Under the pieces are notes generated by a model. That model was given only the letters and a program-made list of their open reading frames with translations, made no database searches and was not told where the DNA came from. Of a DNA stretch of 64,000 nucleotides, positions 42 through 30,720 are shown piece after piece. The position numbers and the translations under genes are program-made. Each line of letters starts with the position of its first letter. The stretch's first letter is position 1. This DNA is from Leptogorgia sarmentosa. Lineage: Eukaryota. The DNA is taken from positions 25,420,001-25,484,000 of the forward strand of contig OZ210885.1 of NCBI GenBank assembly GCA_964658305.1, read 5' to 3'.

Positions 42-1192
42 TTACAAATACCCATCCAACAAGCTGGTGGACAGACCTCTGGCTATGCCCATGTCATATA
101 CAGAACTATGAAGTAAGAATATTGTTATTAAATGTATAGAAAAATGAAATACCTGACTTGAGTCATGAGCACCTAAATGACCTTGTTCATTTTCTTCAAC
201 ATTTTCAGCTGTTAATCCCAAAGGTATATCTCTCTGCACTGGCCGTAAATACACCTTCGCTTGACCACACAAAGCTTTAAGTCTGCCAGCTGTGTGTGGC
301 CCATTTACCACATGGAAACCACCATCCAATCCACCACCCCTTTGGTAAAGAAGGAAATCGAACCCTCCTACCTCTGAAAGTTGTGGATAGTTTTCCACAA
401 TTGTATCATAGATAGGTTCCCCATTGTCAATTAATGCAATGGATTTGTCACCAAGGCATGCGTTTGATAGGTCCGTTCTTTCCTTTATATTCTGTGGTGG
501 CCGTTCTGCATCTTTTGATGCAAGGCAAACAAATTTTATAGTACATGTCTGTGCTTTCTTCCTTTTCAATTGTCTGGATTTGGAACTAGATGAACTTGAT
601 CGTTTTCCAAAATTGAACAACCTGCGTTGTTCAGCAATTACCGATACATTGTGATTTTGTGAACGTAAGTTAGAGGAAGTGCCACTTGTTAAGGGAGTTG
701 AAACTCCCACTTGTTGTGGGGTCTGAATAGGAGACTGTACAGGCACAGGCATTACTTGTTGAACATTTGGGGCAGGAGAACCTACGGAAAAGAAATTAGC
801 AAAAAAAGTTAACAAAAAAAATAAACATATTCTATTTTATTTTCATATATGTTTTATTTTCACTATATAGTGAATTCTTTGTATGTGAACATTCAGGCTG
901 TATTTACCCTTATTTAGTCCCTTATATTCATTCACAATCGCGAACCAGAAAAGTGTTAGATATTCAGTTAGTTTCAAAATGTAAAGGATTTGTTTTACAT
1001 AACGGACTTGACATGGTCTTTCAAGATTCAAATATATTGATTGATATAATCAGAATAGTGCATTATACAAATACAATACATAATAAACTCACCACTATTC
1101 TGAGACTGTTCCCAGTTCGAAATTCGATTCGCAAGCATGTATAGCGTGTCTTTGACTTCGTTCATTTCTGCAGCACGTCGATTGGATGCCAT
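42..1192 (-). CDS. 5' part of the HECT-partner gene of element A (G2E3-like N-terminal region); spliced, continues off the window
   Basis: Exon 1 from ATG 1192 (MASNRRAAEMNE..) splices in phase to the acceptor at ~781 (GSPAP..); domain KFVCLAS..P...ER..L..ACLG..YPQL...GGFDFL..CGQAKVYLRP resembles the equivalent domain in elements B and C; HECT domain itself is not in the window. Confidence 0.6.
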
Positions 1193-6183: not shown

Positions 6184-6516
6184 AACATTCTACACATGAG
6201 CACATTACACAAAATAAAATTCATGGGTGGCTAATGTCGTAGAGGGCCAGTTTGGACCTGTACTAATCACCTTTCCAGTTATGTGGTCTTTGTGTTCAGA
6301 AGGATGAGGCAACTTGATGATATATTGCATCTGAATACGGTCACTTCCGATAGTGTTTGACTTCAGTTCGTCATGCAACTTTTTTGCAGCTTTTCTTCTG
6401 AAGAAAGAAAATCTTCGATCTAAATTATAATTAAAAAAATAAAATAAGAAAATAATTTCGATCTAAATTATAATTAAAAATCCTATTTTTCCGTACATTA
6501 TTTTTATGCAGAAGTG

Positions 6517-6733
6517 TATGGGGCGCCGATGCTGACAAAATTCGCATATTGAATTATCATTCGCAAATGAAAAACTCTTCAATTCTCATTCGCAAAAATG
6601 TCAAATTCTCATTCGCAAATATTGAAAATATCAAATTCGCATTCACAAAAAAATTTCAAATTCGCATTCGCAAAAAATGTCAAATTCGCATTCGCAAAAA
6701 ATGTCGAATTCGCATTCGCAAAAAATGTCGAAT
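6517..6733 (+). repeat. Left TIR of element B with ~24-bp subrepeats (AATTCGCATTCGCAAAAAATGTC)
   Basis: Reverse complement of 12958-13153; left side has one extra unit. Confidence 0.92.
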
Positions 6734-6825
6734 CCTTATTCCAGAAAAAAATGTCGCCGAATTCACTTGGACGGGTTCTTCACTACACTCACTTATATAT
6801 AGCTCAGTTTGGTGTGGTAAGCAAA

Positions 6826-8346
6826 ATGGCAGACCTGCGTTCAATTTTAGAAAGCGTAAACGGCGTGTTTAACGACATGGAAAGCTTTAATAATTCCACA
6901 GCAATTGATCATGAACAATCTACTAACTTAGGATACCTCGAGACATTGACTGTTCGGGCAGAAGAATGTATTCGCCTTCTTCGTACAATAATAGGGCGAT
7001 TAACTGATGTAACAAGGCAAAGACTTGGTGACAACAACATGCAAGTGATGCAACTATGGGAAGATTTTCACCAACTGTGTACTATATTTGAACGAAGCTA
7101 CTACAGCTTTCTTGACCAAAACGTACCATCAACTGATGCCTACAACTTTTCGTGTTACAGAGAAAAAATAACTGGACCTGGTAGACCACGTGTGATAATC
7201 ACAAGACAACAGATCGAAGCATTAAGGGAACTTCACTTTTCATGGTCTTGTATTGCTAGATTACTTGGGGTATCAGAACGTACCCTGGAAAGGAGAAGAC
7301 AAGAATTTCAAATGCCAATGGGAAGGGCCTGCTACTCAAGTGTTAGTGATAACGAGCTTGACTATATTATTTCAGGGATTGTTAGAACCAGTCCAAATGC
7401 TGGTGAAACTTTGGTTCAAGGTGCATTACGACACCGTGGCTTGATGATACAACGTCAGCGTGTACGTGAAAGCTTATCACGGGTTGATCCAATTTCAAGG
7501 TTGCTTCGTCGACGTCAACTAATATATCGTAGACATTATCAAGTAAGAGCTCCAAATTCACTCTGGCATGCAGATGGAAATCACAAACTTATTAGATGGA
7601 GGTTTGTAGTTCATGGAGCGATAGATGGATATTCACGGCTTGTAACCTTTCTGCATTGTAGCACCAACAATCGAGCTGCAACTGTATTGCAACATTTTAT
7701 CTCAGCCGTAGAGAGATTCGGGTGCCCATCTAGAGTGCGCACTGACATGGGACTAGAAAATGTTGAAGTAGCACGTTATATGCTTTTGAGGCGTGGCATT
7801 GGTAGAGGAAGTATTATTACTGGTTCATCAGTACACAATCAAAGAATAGAAAGATTATGGAGAGACGTGTTTCGTTGTGTTTTGTATCAATTTAGAAACA
7901 TATTTTTCTACATGGAAGAGGAGAATATTCTTGACCCCCTTTCTGAATTACATTTGTTTTGTTTACACCATACATATTTGCCGCGTATAAATAGGGCACT
8001 CACAGAATTTGCAGAACAATGGAATCAGCATCCAGTAAGTACAGAAGAAAATCAAAGTCCGTATCAACTTTGGGTAAGTGGCATGCTGGCATCAGCTAAT
8101 TCATTCTGCACAGCAGTTTGCGACGTAATGGATGGTATCGAAGAGCCTTTGTTACAATATTATGGTGTAGATGAAAATGGTCCAATTGTTTCTTCTGATG
8201 ATGGTAATATTGTCGAGGTTCCGCCTTTAATTGTAGAACTTTCACATGAACGAGAACAAATAATTATGGATCAAATAGATCCACTGTCTGAAGACGACAA
8301 TTATGGAATTACCATTTTTATGAGAATGGTATACTTGTTGCAATAG
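6826..8346 (+). CDS. IS3EU-type integrase-like DDE transposase, ~506 aa, intronless, intact
   Basis: HTH region [21 protein letters not shown]; catalytic motifs [37 protein letters not shown]; likely start ATG 6826 (MADLRS). Confidence 0.9.
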
Positions 8347-8719
8347 ATGTAAGTAGCGACTTGGGATTTCAGCGAACTGTGGAATGCTTGCTTGTCAGCA
8401 GGAGAACCCACATGATCCCACCCACTTTGATTTCACTTTTTAATAAACAATGTGAAGACAATGGTGTGTGCCGAAATATATCTTTTCGGAAATGGAAGTG
8501 TAGATTTGAACACATCGACAGCAGAAAAGCGTACATAATTCTTTTGAAATGTATACAAAATTAACCAAACCATGATTACAATAAAAGTAAAGAGAATATG
8601 TTTTAAGTTCTTTACCTAAACAATAACTAAATAGGAATTCATGCAAAAAAACAAGGAACTAAAACAACAATAATTTTGTTATAGGTACTGTAACAGGTTT
8701 CTGGATGCAGTGTATCTCG

Positions 8720-11700
8720 TTAGAACCGACCATATCCTTTCGCACCAAACCCTAGAGCCACATCCATAGCTCGTTTGAAAGAGTGGAAATCGGTGTGACA
8801 ACAAGGTAGGCGGATTTGGTTGAAACATGCACCACTTTCCGGAAGCGTTTTGGTCTGGTCCACAAGTAGATCAACAACCAGTGTTGCTTCACCTGATACG
8901 CTGCTTTCCGCAGTCCAAAACTGGAGGAGGTTTATTGTTGATGGCAATGTTCCATTGTAGTCTAAAACAGATGCTAAGTTATATAGGTATACAGTAACAC
9001 GTGCAACTATCTGTGGCATGAAATAATATATGCATGATGTGTGCACATTAGTGTATGTTACCTTCATTAGTTTTGAGTTGCTTTATGTATTCCAGAAAAT
9101 ATTTATACGATTCGGCTTCTTTCACATTATCAGGGACACATTTTATGCAACAAATCACTTGCTCTGCCGATACTTCGAGATCACATGATTTTGGAAAAAC
9201 TTTTCTGGAAAACTCCGGTTGTCCTTTCAGAAAGGAACACAGTGATATTGCTTCCATGCCATCTCGGATATCCATAATTTGCTTCTGTCGTTTATTTATA
9301 ACGAAATGCCACATTACGTGCCATGCTGCAAGGCCAATATTGCACAGTGTTAGAGTGCAAGGAAATTCAGCTTCCAAAAGTGGTGGCAGAAGCTGATCAC
9401 TTATATCTTTCCATGAGGATGAATTTTCAGTCCATTCCATACTTTCTGTTTGAATCTAAAAAATAATATGAAACATGAAAGAAAATCAGCATTGCTGGAG
9501 GATAATGTATATCACTTGCTATAACCATTAGGCATACACATTAACATATTCTACCTTACACTTTCATTACTGCAGCAAACAAACAGGATTAGGGGCCATA
9601 TAATTATTAATTATTCCCATTATGATGCTTAGACTACATATGAAAAATAATTTGTTGTACAGCCATTACCTTCATAACAAGTGCAGATAACTCAGGATCA
9701 GGAATGTCATCTGGAACAGGAGTTAAGCCTGTTGTTTCACCAGAAATGATATAATTCTTCAGCACAGGAGACAACCCATGGAGACCTGGACCACCATGTA
9801 GAATGCTGTGTGCTATAAACTTCCCCACAGCAACATACATACCACACTGCTGTAAAAATGGGTTTGGAGTAGGAAGTTTGTGATCATCTTTACCTTCAAA
9901 TAAAGGATAGCTGCCATCTCCAGCATTAAGGGGTTCCTTTGCCAGTGCTGCCATTCCAATGCTGAAGTATTCTTTGGTCAGTGCGCCAGCGTCAATGCCA
10001 GTTTCATTGACAAACACTACTTCGGGACGCCTTTTCAAGGACACATGTGGTTTTTTGTACACAGAAAGAATTTGAAAGTTGACATTTTTCCCTAATCTAT
10101 CCATTTTCAAAAACTGTGGAGCCCCTGTGTCATAGTCATCAGGACGAAGATCTCTAATGTACTCATCAAGAGTTTTGACTTGAGAATCTAGTAATTAGAA
10201 TGAGTCAGGTACAATAAGGCATAACTCAGTTCAGAACTGACAGTTCTTCAATATTGTAAGTCAGTTTTAACATAGTAATATATGGCTGCAGGTCAAATAA
10301 ATAACTAACCCAACTTGACTTCATGCTAGGCGCATTAAAACTAATACAACTTTGCTAGAAGAAATTTTGGTAACTGCATTTTACTGTTAAACCATCCACT
10401 ACATACCATCGTCCATGTCACAAATTTCAGCAATTGCTTGATCAAGATCAATTTGATCATCCAGGAGAGTGCGGCATTCATCAACTACAATTGAAAGATT
10501 TTTCCGTCCAGGAAATATTTCAGTTAATCTGCTGAGTGCTACATCTCTATTTACCTGCAACAACAAGAATGTGTTTATTATTTTACTATATGATGCCTAT
10601 TCCATTCCATGTGCAATCTCACATATTTTACACAATTTTAATTGTTGTTTGACCAAAACATGTAGTTCACAGTAGCTAAATTATGGCAGTAGTTTTTCGA
10701 CTTAAATACACAATAATTAATGTGAAAGCATATATATATATATATATTGATTACATATATTAATTGTCACAATGTGGTATCCAGCATTACTGCTGGTGGA
10801 TTTTGTCTTCATTTAGTTGATTATAAATACAAGATTACTTACCAGAGTTCCAGTATAAGAATCAGAGACTATTTTCTCTCTTTGTCCCTGACTCTAAAAT
10901 TTTGTGATAAACAATTTTAAGATAACAATACTGATAAACACTTTTGTGGCCAGTGTATGTTATATACATGCATGTACCTTTTCATCTGAGGAATAAACGT
11001 CCTGGCACATGCCTGAAGAGCATGGGATACTTGTATGCAAGCTTGATGTGGACATAAGTGACGAACTTTGGTTGGTTGCACATGTGACCTAGGAAAAAAC
11101 ATGAATATGTCACCTTTACACCATGGTAATCATGGTTTTGCATGCTTACAGGTACAGAATATGATGTCCATATACCTTCTCAACTTTAGGATAGATGTTC
11201 TGGCTTGTGCCCGAAGAACATGGGATATTTGCATCCAAGACGTTTGTCAAGCTCGATGTGGACACACCGGTAGATGAGCTTTGGCTAGTTGCACAAGTGC
11301 TCTAGGAAAAAAAACACACACACACCAATGTATTGCCTCTACTGTCATGGTGTGCATGGTTTTGCCTGTTTACATGTACAAACAGAATATCATGTCAAAA
11401 ACATGTGCAATATTTAAATGCTATACATGCAGTTGACCAAGTTTATGTATTTGATAAACAGGCCATGGTATTCTGTATTACTTACAGATGCAGGAAAATT
11501 TCCAGAACAATTTGAGTATAAGTAACATCTTATATCCTCATCCTGAAAATGCATGATTATTGTTACATAAAAGACTCAAATTACCTAGGGAAGGTTGATG
11601 CTTCAAACATCTAGTAATATAAGAGAATTGTTACCCTATCATCATCTTCATCATCAGAAACATCTTCATCTGTATCCAGTGCTTTAATATAAACTGCACC

Positions 11701-12861
11701 TTGACCACAAATATGCTTCAGTCCATCACAATTCCACTTGTGACTGTTCAGTACACGTGGCTCAATTATCTGGCCTCCTGATGCCTTAACAAATTTCCAA
11801 CTATATTTGAAACACAAAAAAATATAGTCAGAAGAAATACCACTGACCACTGAAAAAGCTTGCAAAGTTGCTACTTGCTAGAATATCCGATTTTTCCCCC
11901 CAAATTTGACAAAAAAATTCTGACCCATATTGGACCTGTACAAGTGAAGCTACCTTGCCCCTGTCAACATGCAAGCTATGAAAATAGGCAATGTGATTTC
12001 AAATAGAGCTATGATCAACCATATACTCAATAGAATACATAAGGTTTGTTATCTCGTTGTCTCGGTGCACTGTCTTGGTGTAGCAGAAATGGTCGCTTCA
12101 TGATCACGTGTGCATTGTATTATACCAAGACACTGCTAATGGTTGATTGCGCAGATAAACAAAGCACACACATGAGTTAAAAAGTTATTCTTTCGACCAC
12201 GGACTGACTGATGAATAGACTTAACTTAGTGACAGGATAAAAATAAAATAAAAAACATTGAAAGGCGGGTGCTATACTTTTTTGGGCCCACTGAGGTTTG
12301 CGACAACTTATGCGCGAAAATTTCATTAACAACTCCTTCAATTTCTTCCTCTGTCTGGTTTTGTTTTAGTGGCACAGCATGCACAACAAAGCCTTCCTTT
12401 TCCAGTTTGCTGCGCTCCTTGCCTCTGGGAGTGGTTGTTGCGTTTGAACTAAGTAGGACGAAGTCTTTGTATACAATTTTTTCTGCAGCCGGTTCATCTT
12501 TGAAAATGTTTTGTATGGTTCTCTTGCGCCGTCTGCCACTACCTGACAACCTTGGACGTCCGTACGACATTGTGGGGTTGTACCGATTCACAGGGGTTGT
12601 TGCTAGAGCACTAGTGGTACTAGCAGGTACTGTCGATGTAGAAGATTGTTGCGGATTGCGTCCGACCGTTGATGTAGATTGCTGAGAATTGTGTGTATTA
12701 AATCTATTTCGAAGCTCACTTTCGGCATGTTGTAGTTCCGGATTTGAAATTATTCTTTGAATTACACCAGGTAATGAAACGGGTGTTGAATTACTCTGTG
12801 TCTCTGGGTTTAAACGACTAAATAACCTGTCGACAACTCCGTCTACAATTCTGTCCTCCAT
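8720..12861 (-). CDS. HECT-domain E3 ubiquitin ligase (G2E3-like), 10 exons, 798 aa
   Basis: GT-AG exons 12861-12278, 11800-11635, 11542-11486, 11301-11176, 11088-10978, 10893-10843, 10554-10407, 10187-9670, 9455-9062, 8961-8720 join in frame (2397 nt); N-lobe VVFVNETGIDAGALTKEYF, VGKFIAHSILHGGPG; C-lobe LLQFWT..LPESGACFNQIRLP..GYGRF with catalytic Cys. Confidence 0.88.
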
Positions 12862-12957
12862 GTTTATTCACGAGTTCACATGTTCATGAGTGTGTTGGCG
12901 GGAAAATGTTAATTATTCGCGGGGAAAAAATCGCCGACATTTGCGGTTTGCGACTGA

Positions 12958-13153
12958 GAATTCGACTTTTTTTGCGAATGCGAATTTGACATTTTTTGCG
13001 AATGCGAATTTGAAATTTTTTTTGCGAATGCGAATTTGATATTTTCAATATTTGCGAATGAGAATTTGACATTTTTGCGAATGAGAATTGAAGAGTTTTT
13101 CATTTGCGAATGATAATTCAATATGCGAATTTTGTCAGCATCGGCGCCCCATA
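12958..13153 (-). repeat. Right TIR of element B
   Basis: Inverted copy of 6517-~6710. Confidence 0.92.
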
Positions 13154-13301
13154 GAAGTGCATTATGAAATAAATTATATATAAATTAATGTACCTTCATT
13201 CCTGGAAATTTTGCTATTTGTGTAATAAAAATTGTAGCCAGGCATTGCTTTTTCTTTGAGGTCTGGGCAAACAATCTTTTCTTGGAGTGGTAGGCGTGGT
13301 C

Positions 13302-15684
13302 CAGGGCCTATTTTAGTGTGCAGTATTGCACACTTTGTGCAGTATTGAATGAAAAGTGTGCAGTATTAAAATTGTAACCTTACATTACAGAACCAAAAGC
13401 CAAAATGCCAAAATAGAATAAAGATTGCCTAAATATAAGCCAAGTCCCCCAGTTTCATACGATATTTATTCTAATTAATTTAAATTAATTAATTTTCTAA
13501 TACAGTAATAATAAAAAAGCGCGTATACTTCATGTAAGCTTGACCTAATACAAACTCCTGCCCAGGTTTCGTGTTTTCATCACGTCCAAGATGGCGAATT
13601 AATTAAACATTCATAAGAATCGAAATTATGGCGAAATTTGTAGTATATGCAAAGATGTGACACGACCAACATGTCATCGCTGCAAAGCATGTAGCAATCC
13701 AGTGCATAATGTTTTGTGTGCGTCACTTCTTTCTAACGTGATACAAGAATTTGCAATGCGTGCTCAAGCTCATCGACTATGCCAAAAGAGAAAGTCGGAA
13801 AACGCCACTTATCTCACTCGACAGAGCCGCACGAAGGTATGCCTAAGAAGACCAAAACAATTCAGCCTACAATAACGTTTTTACTGAAAAAGAAAGAAAT
13901 TGGTGATTCTTCTGCAAAAACTAGCATAGACAAAGGAAAACCTAAACATTTAGAACGAACTAAACTAGAGTCAAAGCAAAAATAGAGAGCAGCTTAGCGC
14001 TATCACTAAGATGCGATTCTTCAGTTGACAGAAGAAGTATCGACAACTGCCATGTTCTTGCAAAGATTATAAATCAAGATGGCAAGCCAGAGCTTCTGTT
14101 TCTGGGTCCTGATGAACCAAAAGCTAGAGGGATGCCAGGATATGTTCAGGCTGTGAAGGATGCAGTTAACCTGACATCACGTTGGTCTGATGTAGCAAGA
14201 AAAATGACATCTATTGTAACAGATGGCACAAATTTGAACACAGGAGATAGAACTAGTCTTTGGGCATCCCCAACAGCGGAACAGGAAGCTTATGGTTTGC
14301 CTTTGGTAAAAGTTTGGTGCATTGCACACGAACTGATCTTGCATGGAAAGCAGTATCAGATAATGTTTCCGAGGTGAAGTTTCTTTGCTCCAAGATGGTC
14401 GCGATCGCATCATATTTCCATTCTTCAGGAGTTCGGTCAAGAGAACTTCGTGAAGTGGCAGAGGAAAATGGATTCCAGCTGCATGAACTGCCAAAACTTT
14501 TTGAAGTATGCTGGAGTGAGTTCAATTCATCTCTTTTGGAGTCCATGTTGGTCTCTTGGAGAGCACTGGTAAAGTATTTTGAAAAGATGCACGATGCAAC
14601 TTCATGGGGATACTACGCATTTTTGACCAAATTGGAACATTTGAAGCTGTTGGTTTTTGTAGCTGATTTGCTCTTTGTTTTCTCGAGGTACCACAAGAAG
14701 ATCCAATTGGAAAACTTTAACATCACTGACTTGCCTGACTGGAAGTCAGATGTGATAAAAAGACTTGACGATCTATACCATTCACCTGTCTTAGGTGGCT
14801 GGGAATCGTTGTTTGAAAAACAGCATCAACCAGAAGACAATTTTTTTATGGGCATCAAGCTTAAAAGCGCGAAAGAAACCCGAAGAAGACAACATCATTT
14901 GTATGTCAGTGAAACAACGCACATTTTCGAAACTGTGCGATCAGGGATTTTGGAGTCTCTAAAGACTTTTTTGGTGCAAAGGCTTTCATTTGATGAAGAC
15001 CTCCAGACGTTGCTGAAGTGCTTTATTTCATTTCAAGCAAAAGATGAGGAACTTGTGTTAGTGCATCGGAAAATTGCTTGTGACCTACCATTGACGGATA
15101 TTTCTGAGGAGTATTGTGATGCTGTTCGATTACTTGGATCAAATTCATTGTCTTTACTGCAAAAAGTTGAAATCCTTGCACAGGCTTCAGGTGACTATAG
15201 TAGCTTAGCAGTTTTTTTTGCAAGGATTGCAGCTTGTACACCACATTCAACTGATGTAGAAAGGCTGATCAGCTTATAAAACCAGCTCAAGACGTCCGAT
15301 CGCTCCTGTCTGTCCAACGAAACAGTTTCGCACTATCTATATATCAACCTGAATATGCCTGTTCTAGTTCCTGAACTATCCGCGTTCCTGAACTCGGGTT
15401 CAACCCAAGGCCGGCAGTAGAATACTGGTGGAAGCACCCCCACCGATCTGTGGAGCCAACAAAGGCTAAGAGACAAGAATGGTTTCTGAAAACTTTTTGT
15501 GAAGCATCAGAGAAAATTTTAAATTTTAAACACATGTAATAGATATTTGTTGTGTTATTAAGACAATTAAGACATTGTCATTCTATGTTATAATCCTACG
15601 TTATTTTTAATAAGCAATTGTGACGTCAATGATAAAATCTCCTCTGAAATGTGCAGTATTGAAATTTCCTTAGAATAGGCCCTG
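13302..15684 (+). mobile_element. hAT transposon (ZNF862/KIAA1586-like), decayed, inserted in a MULE exon
   Basis: 8-bp TSD GCGTGGTC (13294-13301, 15685-15692); TIR CAGGGCCTATT(T/C)TA; GTGCAGTATT subterminal repeats. Confidence 0.88.
14010..15500 (+). pseudogene. hAT transposase, frameshifted
   Basis: SIVTDGTNLNTG, WCIAH (CxxH), FEVCWS, TPHSTDVERLIS motifs split across frames. Confidence 0.8.
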
Positions 15685-27809: not shown

Positions 27810-29302
27810 ATGAATAACAACAATATTACTCAGCTTGTTCGTTCAGTCGTATCTTCGCTACAGAATTTACCAACATCAGGCTCCCAATCCTCTGGGAGTT
27901 CGAGCGGCAATAACAGCAGCACAAACAGGAATATAAATCATGAGTCTGTAAACGAAGAAGTTTCTGAGAGGTTTCGACTTCCTCGTGGTCGGAACGACAG
28001 TTCAGCAAGACGATTACCTAGAGCAAGAAATGGACGCTTTGTTCCCTACACTACTGCTGCCAAAGCTGTTAGAGAAAAAGGAAAAGCAGACATTATCATT
28101 AAAGATGTTTGTTTCCATCACCACGTTGGAAAGAAGTTCCCAGAAGGCAATTTAAACAAGAATTGATCAGCAGAAACTTATTCATTGTTTATTACACTCA
28201 CAATGACATCTGTAAAACCTGAATGTTTGGAAATAGCTAAGTTGGCAAACCAACATAATTTATAATTTATGTTCTTGAATATTTTTTCTTTGCAACACAA
28301 CATTTATATAATTCTGTAATCACACTGTATAAACCAAATTTCCTGTTATTTATATTCCATTTATTCTGTGGTACATGCACCTGTATAGCAATATGATTTT
28401 CTTCATTTAGTTTTGAATTTGTTAAATCTGTTGGCAACAAAATCACAAATGTCAAACTTGCTGACAGGCAAGAAGCAAATGCCAGAATTGTCAGGCATAT
28501 TGCTGGAAATGGTCCCATTTACATCTGTTGCCTATCTCCTAACGATGATGATGAGGTAAATTAATGAGTAGCTAATTTGAAACGGGAACCTTGCTGGCAT
28601 GATTTTTTTTAAGCATGAATTGTTTCCAAATACATTGATACTTATTTTCTTGTATTCTAAGGAAGAAGATATTGCCTTTACATCAGAGCAAATGACCTCT
28701 TTTTGCCTTCATGGAATTCTACTGTCAAGGAAGGCAGAGCTTGATCAGTTTGTTCTTGGCTTGGGACCATTGGTTGACATCATTAAACAACACCCAAAAA
28801 CAATGGAGCCGCTTTTTTTGGCTGGTAGCGAGAAACTGCTGACTGCTGAAGAGTTTCTCTCACTTGTTGAGTATGACAATGTGAATGATTCATTGAAGCA
28901 ACACTTTATACGATATGTACATTTACCAGGTAACAACTTATTGCCAAATAATGTGGATAATGTAATTTGTCCATATTATATGAGAGACAGAACTGAGAAC
29001 ACTACTGCCAACAATCATCATGATTAAGGTAATTAAGCTTGATGAATTTAATTTACTTTTTTTCTCTAGACACACAGATACCCAGTCTTCTGAAGTTTGC
29101 AACTGGTACTCGTTCTATCCCCCCAATGGGTTTCTGCAACCCATCTCTTATAACGGTACTTCAAAACTTGTCAGTTTACCCCAATTCAAACACATGTCCC
29201 ATGGAATTGGAATTACCAGGTGGTGTTACAAGTTTCGAAGATTTTAAGAAGAATATGGATTCAGCAATAGGTTTTCAAGAGGAAGGGTTTGGCATTGTTT
29301 AG
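27810..29302 (+). pseudogene. HECT ligase partner gene of element C; frameshifted, N-lobe apparently deleted
   Basis: FEFVKSVG..RHIAGNGPIYI N-terminal domain; KAELDQFVLGL; LLKFATGTRSIPPMGF..YPNSNTCPMELELP..EEGFGIV. Confidence 0.82.
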
Positions 29303-30720
29303 CCGAATAACTTGTTACTGTAGTGTAGCCATTTAATTTACGAGAAGTTGTGTTTTTTAATACTTTGTTCAGTAGCAAGTTGATCCATTTCAATTGATAT
29401 TTTCTGTATACACTATTCATATTTCAACGTCAAATTGAAACAACAAATGACAACTTTAATTCTTGTTACTGGTAGGCTAGTTGTTGTAAATAGTTAAGAA
29501 TACCAAGAAATCTAACTACACCATCTTCGTCTCCTGCCTGTCCAATGCTGTTCGCTATTTGTTCAATTTGGCAGAGATTTTCCTCTCTCAAATTAATAGG
29601 AGACACAGGAACTGCAACTCTGTAGTCTGACTGCATGCCTGCTGGTGGACCATCTTCATCTATGCCATATTCATCCCAATTCACCTGCTGGTCACTTTGT
29701 ACACTATATACCGCACTATAGTTGGTGTTTCTTGCATCAATCATTCCTTGTACCCATAGCTGACGAGGGCTTAGATTCCTTTCTGTGCTCAAAGGATGAT
29801 TGTTCCATGCTTCACAAAGTTCGTTAAGTGCTGGTTGATGAGGGGAGTATAGACATAATGTAAAACAAATAAGTGTAGCTCATTGGTTGTATCAAGGGAC
29901 AGTGACTCAAGACAGGAAAAGATATTAACAAACCGGCTACATACTATACTGTTCACTTCTCTCCAAAGCCTTTCTATTCTCTGATTGTGCACAGATGTTC
30001 CCATTATGATACTTCCACGATTCAGACCATGAGATTCTAACATAAATCAGGCAACCTCAATATTTTCTAAACCTAGATCAGTTCGCACGCGTGAAGGCAG
30101 GTTATATTTATCCACAGCTTCTCTGAAACATTGCAAAACAGTCAAGGCTTGGTTGTTGGTAGCTACTTTCAAGAATACTATCATCCTCGAGAAGCCATCA
30201 ATTCCTCCATGGATTACAAAACGAAATGGCTGAATATGGCTGAATTAGTTTATGATTACCATCAAGGTGCCTAGTAACAAGCAGTTGATTGATTAGAACG
30301 TTTCCATAATTTTCTCTTTTAGGCCATTCGGGGGGGGGGGGGGAGGGGTGCAATCTGCATGCAGGGAGAAAGATGAGTAGAATTTACTGGTGAAGGTCAA
30401 ACGACTCAAGAAAAGCAAATTAATCTGGTCCACTAGCTATATTAAATTGTTAATCCATGCCACACTCATCCCCCAAAGCCACTATGGAAAAGTTTAGTTT
30501 GTTATTTAATAGTTCATACTTACCATAATGCATTTGGACATGGAACAGAATAACGTCGTCGTATAATACTCCTCGATGCTCTCAAGGTTATCATAACAGG
30601 GTCAACCCGACTGTAGTATTAGTTATCAGCAATTAGAATAACATTAGAATAATTAATGTACTAATTATAATATGGGTATAAATAGGGAGTAACTTTTTAA
30701 TAAAATCAGATAACACTACA

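Follow-up and report, generated by a model that had tools for sequence, protein, structure and literature searches.

A complete IS3EU/GingerRoot transposon of Leptogorgia sarmentosa carries, tail-to-tail with its transposase gene, a predicted HECT-type ubiquitin ligase

A 64,000-nucleotide window of the Leptogorgia sarmentosa genome (contig OZ210885.1, positions 25,420,001 to 25,484,000) contains, at window positions 6517-13153, a complete DNA transposon of the IS3EU/GingerRoot type that appears to encode its own ubiquitin ligase. Facing an intact DDE transposase gene is a ten-exon gene whose predicted product ends in a divergent HECT domain with the catalytic cysteine in place, and comparison of related loci indicates that this ligase belongs to the element as a standing part of such transposons. 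To the further proposal, that the ligase binds and ubiquitinates the transposase of its own element, we assign a probability of roughly 0.5. All coordinates below without a locus name refer to the window.

The element is delimited by inverted repeats and by a target-site duplication. Comparison of the flanks identifies the hexamer GAAGTG, to which no strand is assigned, on the left (6511-6516) and on the right (13154-13159). The left terminal inverted repeat (6517-6730, plus strand) starts with TATGG and the right one (12935-13153, minus strand) has CCATA at its end; the two arms align over 214 nucleotides (nt) with 4 mismatches and 2 gaps, and their outer 140 nt are 99% complementary. Repeat units of about 24 base pairs (bp), subterminal in the left arm, lie within the arms and are likely transposase-binding sites. 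A scan of the entire window for TA-type ends accompanied by a 6-bp duplication returned three candidate pairs, of which only 6517-13153 has matching arms (25/25, vs 8/25 and 13/25 for the other two). The termini of IS3EU elements, as defined from PMC10045372 and PMC12730594, are TAYGG..CCRTA with inverted repeats, and the TATGG..CCATA ends and 214-nt arms found here conform to this definition, as do the 6-bp duplication, an IS3/IS481-like DDE transposase of the IS3EU type (rva_4, with the DDE triad and core motifs) and the presence of two encoded proteins, the transposase and a 798-residue gene model. IS3EU elements are described as having TA..TA ends and 6-bp duplications and as forming one clade with GingerRoot (PMC10045372), and a figure legend in PMC10853768 gives them two proteins. 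The assignment is based on ends, duplication, transposase motifs and gene count, with Repbase rows compared as text by eye. An initial annotation, made from the letters alone, had proposed the perfect 6-bp duplication, the near-identical inverted repeats, the two-gene layout and membership in IS3EU, and each of these was borne out. Its label "cut-and-paste" is the Repbase class of the superfamily and would extend to the chemistry of this element by analogy.

The transposase gene (6826-8346, plus strand) is intronless and, as the same annotation had stated, open throughout. Its 506-residue product comprises an N-terminal region, a helix-turn-helix at residues ~130-161 that gives a weak Pfam match, and an integrase core (rva_4, E 2e-87) with the triad D250, D307 and E342 (DD34E). 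All three acidic residues are invariant in 36 aligned sequences, and by eye the motifs agree with those of Repbase IS3EU-1_CVi, IS3EU-1_SK and IS3EU-4_DR. With a threshold of E 1e-20, 7994 candidates yielded at least 2656 relatives, from corals, fish, lancelets, echinoderms and sponges; the nearest species-named cluster holds Paramuricea clavata, and its representative is 79% identical.

The second gene runs on the minus strand from 12861 to 8720. An independent rebuild from splice signals yielded ten exons, nine introns (all GT-AG) and an open frame of 798 residues, reproducing the predicted spliced model of the initial annotation. Its identity as a HECT ligase was assessed exon by exon against solved structures. 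Exon 8 alone places the HECT N-lobes of WWP1 and ITCH at the top (E 0.003), and all but two of the 21 sequences retrieved up to E 10 are HECT proteins. Exon 10 alone matches the AREL1 C-lobe best (E 0.004), with 14 of 14 matches being HECT, and the alignment places Cys764, in the motif ESGACF, on the catalytic cysteine of AREL1. The HECT N-lobe, C-lobe and catalytic cysteine recognized earlier by motif are therefore upheld, as is the bilobal C-terminal arrangement: a profile built from 11 database proteins only aligns without a break to model residues 436-797 (E 1e-63), across the junctions of exons 8, 9 and 10. Pfam searches for HECT (PF00632) gave a more divided answer: 9 of 13 long relatives pass the cut-off, whereas of the exons of this gene, searched singly, exon 10 reaches 17.6 bits vs a cut-off of 23.9 and exons 8 and 9 return nothing. 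A full HMMER search of 1.84 billion proteins recovered 512 relatives of exon 8; a word-index search for longer proteins, seeded with the same exon, retained none of 1668 candidates. The model of an intronless relative, L061 (mean predicted local distance difference test score, pLDDT, 78), also matches HECT structures, with a best E of 8e-11.

HECT ligases characteristically possess an E2-binding subdomain and a phenylalanine at position -4. In the present protein the E2-binding region is of about the usual length but gives no sequence match to solved HECT domains, the exon 8 alignment stopping before it, and position -4 is a tyrosine. Across families, 37 of 40 C-lobe segments, counted without dereplication, retain the cysteine despite a median identity of 23%; the three exceptions are segments that end before the cysteine or are not the last exon, and most C-lobes keep an aromatic residue near the C-terminus. 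This conservation suggests that the protein would act as a ubiquitin ligase through Cys764.

The N-terminal part of the protein revealed a feature absent from the initial annotation. The module encoded by exons 1 and 2, modelled in the relative L031 (pLDDT 82), resembles ubiquitin-like domains, with a best Z of 7.6 at a root-mean-square deviation of 2.8 over 79 residues and no Z of 8 or above; by title, the 50 chains listed are ubiquitin-like domains with few exceptions. We therefore predict a ubiquitin-like domain here, with L031 and L061 serving as stand-ins for the ligase of this element in structure prediction. Pfam gave no named domain for the module, and Foldseek gave no match at E 0.001. 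A match of exon 1 to Shotoku_capsid (E 0.01, under the cut-off) was taken as chance. From N- to C-terminus, the predicted layout is N-terminal helices, a basic patch, the ubiquitin-like domain, a Ser/Thr-rich linker with a duplicated exon, and the HECT domain.

To gauge whether the ligase is a regular companion of such transposases, we compared related loci from metagenome contigs (80 of 596 kept, forming 67 clusters at 85%) and restricted the count to 42 loci (34 clusters) in which 1.5 kb or more of sequence follows the transposase. HECT-gene sequence lies tail-to-tail with the transposase in 31 of these loci and 25 of the clusters and on the same strand in none, at a median gap of 872 nt (35 loci); among upstream flanks, 5 of 21 have HECT matches. 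The profiles behind this count had been iterated on the same loci, so we recounted with a profile made from database proteins, which found tail-to-tail HECT sequence in 24 of 42 loci, none on the same strand, and no decoys among 12029 reversed segments. Pfam searches of segments from 29 tail-to-tail loci detect HECT in 20 at E 0.01, and in 14 the match exceeds the Pfam cut-off. Three further elements are complete (L044, L067 and L072), with TATGG..CCATA ends, 6-bp duplications of their own and HECT sequence inside. The window itself holds a decayed second IS3EU-type pair of another family (27860-30226), again tail-to-tail, with a minus-strand transposase (57% over 141 residues, with stops) and a plus-strand HECT gene (Pfam HECT E 1e-8 at 29039-29299); a search for its ends found none. 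Because the tail-to-tail arrangement recurs across loci, the gene occurs inside complete elements and the cysteine is kept, the ligase does not appear to be chance cargo. The initial annotation had conceded that its proposal would fail if most autonomous copies lacked the second gene; most of the loci carry it.

Close to the left edge of the window, an open frame at 42-836 (minus strand) aligns by eye in its middle with the ubiquitin-like module, although the module profile did not pick it up; it may be the beginning of a third ligase gene that the window edge truncates.

How recently the element moved is less clear-cut than the description "recently active" in the initial annotation implied. 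Seven sequencing runs from two studies, under two species labels, contain much of it (word share 0.40 to 0.94), making it common to several samples. In sample S1 (run X1) the element body has a depth of 114-141 vs 97-129 in unique flank contigs, and in run X2 the collapsed arms have a depth of 344 vs 176-195 for the body, i.e. twice; depth is no direct copy number, and these values suggest roughly two copies in a diploid genome, without a burst. In run X4 one contig spans the right junction as in the window. In run X5 another connects the left end (6515-6969) with 84 letters that differ from the flank in the window, which hints at a second insertion site. No empty-site joint is listed among the assembled contigs of the runs examined. 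Intact frames and near-identical arms speak for recent activity, a reading tempered by the low copy number, the sharing among samples and the lack of a listed empty-site joint.

In the mechanism that we favor, the transposase would bind the repeated units in the inverted repeats, cut at the TA ends and integrate with a 6-bp stagger, as expected of the DDE family. Host E1 and E2 enzymes would load ubiquitin onto Cys764, and the ligase would dock on the transposase through its N-terminal helices or its ubiquitin-like domain and mark it for removal. Removal would clear the protein-DNA complex after integration and give way to host gap repair, or else would cap transposase levels. The protease-driven disassembly of the Mu transpososome provides an analogy. 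The present copy would have entered recently enough to be intact and would now be drifting like any inserted copy. A docking test was made by predicting the complex of ligase residues 1-200 of L061 with the transposase of the same relative, which scored 0.54 against 0.00 for the best of 3 controls, with contact agreement of at least 59% and partner pLDDT of at least 59. This result grades as weak: 51 of 78 solved pairs and 2 of 108 mismatched pairs attain the docking mark, but only 5 of the 78 solved pairs, as against all 4 passing mismatches, attain it with a score of 0.60 or less. Between the two kinds of target named in the initial annotation, a host silencing or chromatin factor or the transposase and its turnover, docking leans weakly toward the transposase.

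Several observations weigh against this reading. The docking signal, besides being weak, comes from L061, whose transposase is 38% identical, and not from the proteins of this element; the transposase is a putative substrate. A binding pair would be expected to co-evolve tightly, and the distances do not show this: over 28 pairs (one per cluster, with 7 segments dropped as incomplete, upstream or belonging to the decayed window copy), transposase and ligase distances correlate weakly (rho 0.08, Mantel p 0.16). In the subfamily of L061 and L036 the N-lobe is much shorter where E2 should bind, with ~30 residues vs 107 here, and although the cysteine is kept, E2 recruitment may be non-standard in that group. 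Nor is the layout universal, as 11 of the 42 loci with enough flank show no HECT sequence, three loci (L010, L015 and L033) have HECT sequence upstream of the transposase, and rust-fungal IS3EU elements have an alpha-kinase, in some cases joined by TET/JBP, in place of a ubiquitin ligase (PMC12730594). Finally, variation at the locus looks neutral. We count at least 45 variants inside the element, the best supported ones, some of them on low-depth contigs; among individuals, synonymous changes make up 6 of 23 in the ligase gene and 2 of 7 in that of the transposase, where 22% would be expected without selection, and one variant in the transposase is a nonsense mutation. The initial annotation had counted neutral evolution of the ligase across copies as evidence against its proposal; variants among individuals at this locus look neutral, and constraint is visible across families, with the cysteine retained in 37 of 40 segments. 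Such a pattern is the usual one for a transposon, with selection acting during transposition and drift following insertion.

Of the alternatives, the one that survives best is that an active ligase targets a host silencing, chromatin or DNA-repair factor, and that the transposase, if bound, serves to bring the ligase to the element. We regard this counter-silencing role as possible though distinctly less probable than transposase ubiquitination. The alpha-kinases that occupy the same slot in rust fungi are joined in some elements by TET/JBP, thought to help escape methylation silencing (PMC12730594). Ligase relatives have varied N-terminal domains (fibronectin type III (fn3), immunoglobulin (Ig), zinc finger and SAM), as would be expected of changing host targets, and the ligase diverges faster than the transposase, with a median identity of 23% in the C-lobe vs 43% in the transposase core. 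Weak docking would also fit a tether. On the other side, this ligase offers no host target and no known substrate-binding domain, and the fn3- and Ig-bearing relatives may lie outside transposons.

An improbable second alternative gives the protein a structural role beside the transposase and supposes that its HECT fold has lost the ability to transfer ubiquitin, a loss reported for G2E3 of human and mouse. Among named host HECT proteins G2E3 comes nearest in predicted structure, and its HECT domain is non-functional (PMC3673628); the domain of the transposon ligases is very divergent, with an N-lobe shortened in one subfamily. The cysteine nevertheless persists in 37 of 40 C-lobes, the three exceptions failing to reach it or not being the last exon, and most C-lobes keep the C-terminal aromatic residue. 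Least probable is that the gene is passive cargo captured by chance or half of a fixed host gene pair no longer mobile, since the capture of host gene fragments with introns by GingerRoot (PMC6839031), the low copy number, the sharing among samples and the lack of a listed empty-site joint are set against one layout in 25 of 34 transposase clusters, near-perfect inverted repeats flanked by an undamaged target duplication, apparently neutral variation and a nonsense allele, both of which misfit a domesticated gene, and an X5 contig linking the left end to other DNA; for the family, passive cargo is already largely refuted.

The exon map of the ligase, all on the minus strand, is as follows. Exon 1 (12278-12861) supplies the start codon, the N-terminal helices predicted from the model of a relative, the basic patch and the first half of the ubiquitin-like domain, and exon 2 (11635-11800) the second half together with an acidic tract. 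Exons 3 to 7 are placed by splice signals and frame alone: exon 3 (11486-11542) encodes predicted linker, exon 4 (11176-11301) and its duplicate exon 5 (10978-11088; repeat families D5 and D9) predicted Ser/Thr-rich linker, exon 6 (10843-10893) further predicted linker, and exon 7 is predicted at 10407-10554. The HECT N-lobe begins in exon 8 (9670-10187) and is completed, with the hinge, in exon 9 (9062-9455); exon 10 (8720-8961) encodes the C-lobe with Cys764 (8825-8827), the tyrosine at -4 and the stop. The spacer between the two stop codons (8347-8719, no strand) contains, near 8440, hexamers on either strand that resemble poly(A) signals.

Other observations concern the surroundings of these genes and their relatives. 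Two short motifs present at high copy number, which show many loose ends in most or all of the runs, lie in ligase intron 1 (12083-12119) and just right of the element (13302-13367) and are probably ends or remnants of other repeats. Run X8, which has another species label, contains only a 520-nt piece of the ligase gene (9178-9698) with 2 differences; contamination, label error or transfer may equally account for it. The remainder of the window (1946-58856) appears by eye to be a nest of mobile-element frames, which we take to be MULE-, hAT-, Harbinger-, Gypsy-, DIRS- and BEL-like. Among the relatives, L061 (3490-5259) and L036 (3164-5185) have a ligase with few or no introns, a single open frame in L061, and an N-lobe ~80 residues shorter. 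The upstream HECT-like genes of L010, L015 and L033 are divergent or tandem, and two have C-terminal extensions past the C-lobe. In the hemichordate relatives P0218, P0220, P0249, P0253 and P0309, a HECT domain of this kind is combined with fibronectin type III repeats. Among viral contigs, 20 pattern matches included no relative.

The accessory HECT gene of IS3EU seems undescribed in the literature we searched. A full-text search turned up no description of a DNA transposon that carries a HECT gene; outside that search lay Repbase entries, a transposon-diversity review (doi 10.1266/ggs.18-00024) and bioRxiv supplements, and a prior Repbase note on the second gene is possible. What is new here is the linkage counts with their controls, the ubiquitin-like domain, the link to GL-Metazoa/G2E3 and the neutral variation at the locus. 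These results name a likely function for the second gene of animal IS3EU elements. Taken jointly, they permit a broader and more speculative reading, which we advance tentatively: that animal IS3EU is a two-component system whose self-encoded ligase docks on and ubiquitinates the transposase or its surroundings, that the many genes named 'G2E3-like' in fish, corals, molluscs and hemichordates belong to these transposons, and that the HECT domain of vertebrate G2E3 came from such an element.

This connection to G2E3 has implications for annotation. Like G2E3 and GL-Metazoa (class IV), which a HECT survey describes as extremely divergent families (PMC3673628), the ligase has a highly divergent C-terminal HECT domain, and several exon 8 relatives are named 'G2E3-like' at NCBI. 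A structure search with the relative P0213 ranks G2E3 as the top named host cluster (score 1257 vs 927 for SMURF1). Unlike G2E3, however, the ligase has a ubiquitin-like domain, keeps its cysteine, resides inside a transposon and shows no N-terminal PHD/RING-like zinc fingers (no Pfam match on exons 1, 2 and 7), and we treat the affinity, drawn from NCBI names and structure ranking, as a lead only. The string 'transpos' has no occurrence in the HECT survey (PMC3673628, 2013). G2E3 is said to be a late arrival among animals, dating from after chordates and echinoderms had split (PMC2837046), and transposon ligases offer a candidate source for it; likewise, 'G2E3-like' expansions such as the 20 copies in a hadal sea cucumber, read as adaptation (PMC9700323), may be transposon copies.

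Among transposons, the closest comparison is with IS3EU/GingerRoot itself (Repbase; PMC10045372; PMC6839031), with which the element shares TA..TA ends, the 6-bp duplication, inverted repeats, two genes and an integrase-like DDE transposase of the 'LWHxDxNHKLIRW' subgroup (IS3EU-1_CVi, -1_SK, -3_CGi and -4_DR; Data S3). It differs in that the second gene is here identified as a ligase with a ubiquitin-like domain and a HECT domain; the terms 'HECT' and 'ubiquitin' do not occur in the main text of PMC10045372 or PMC6839031. The rust-fungal IS3EU elements (PMC12730594), whose supplement text yields no HECT match, resemble it in their TAYGG..CCRTA ends, 6-bp duplications and enzyme gene opposite to the transposase. 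Ubiquitin- and SUMO-system enzymes are also carried by the DNA transposons Ginger1, Mutator and Helitron, in the form of OTU or Ulp1 proteases for which a role in transposition or repair has been proposed (PMC2836005). Those proteases take ubiquitin or SUMO off proteins and, in Ginger1, form a fusion with the transposase, whereas the ligase described here is a separate gene and would add ubiquitin. A ubiquitin-adding transposon enzyme with its catalytic cysteine kept across many families would allow a direct test of that older proposal, and because the element is compact and intact, a transposition test is practical.

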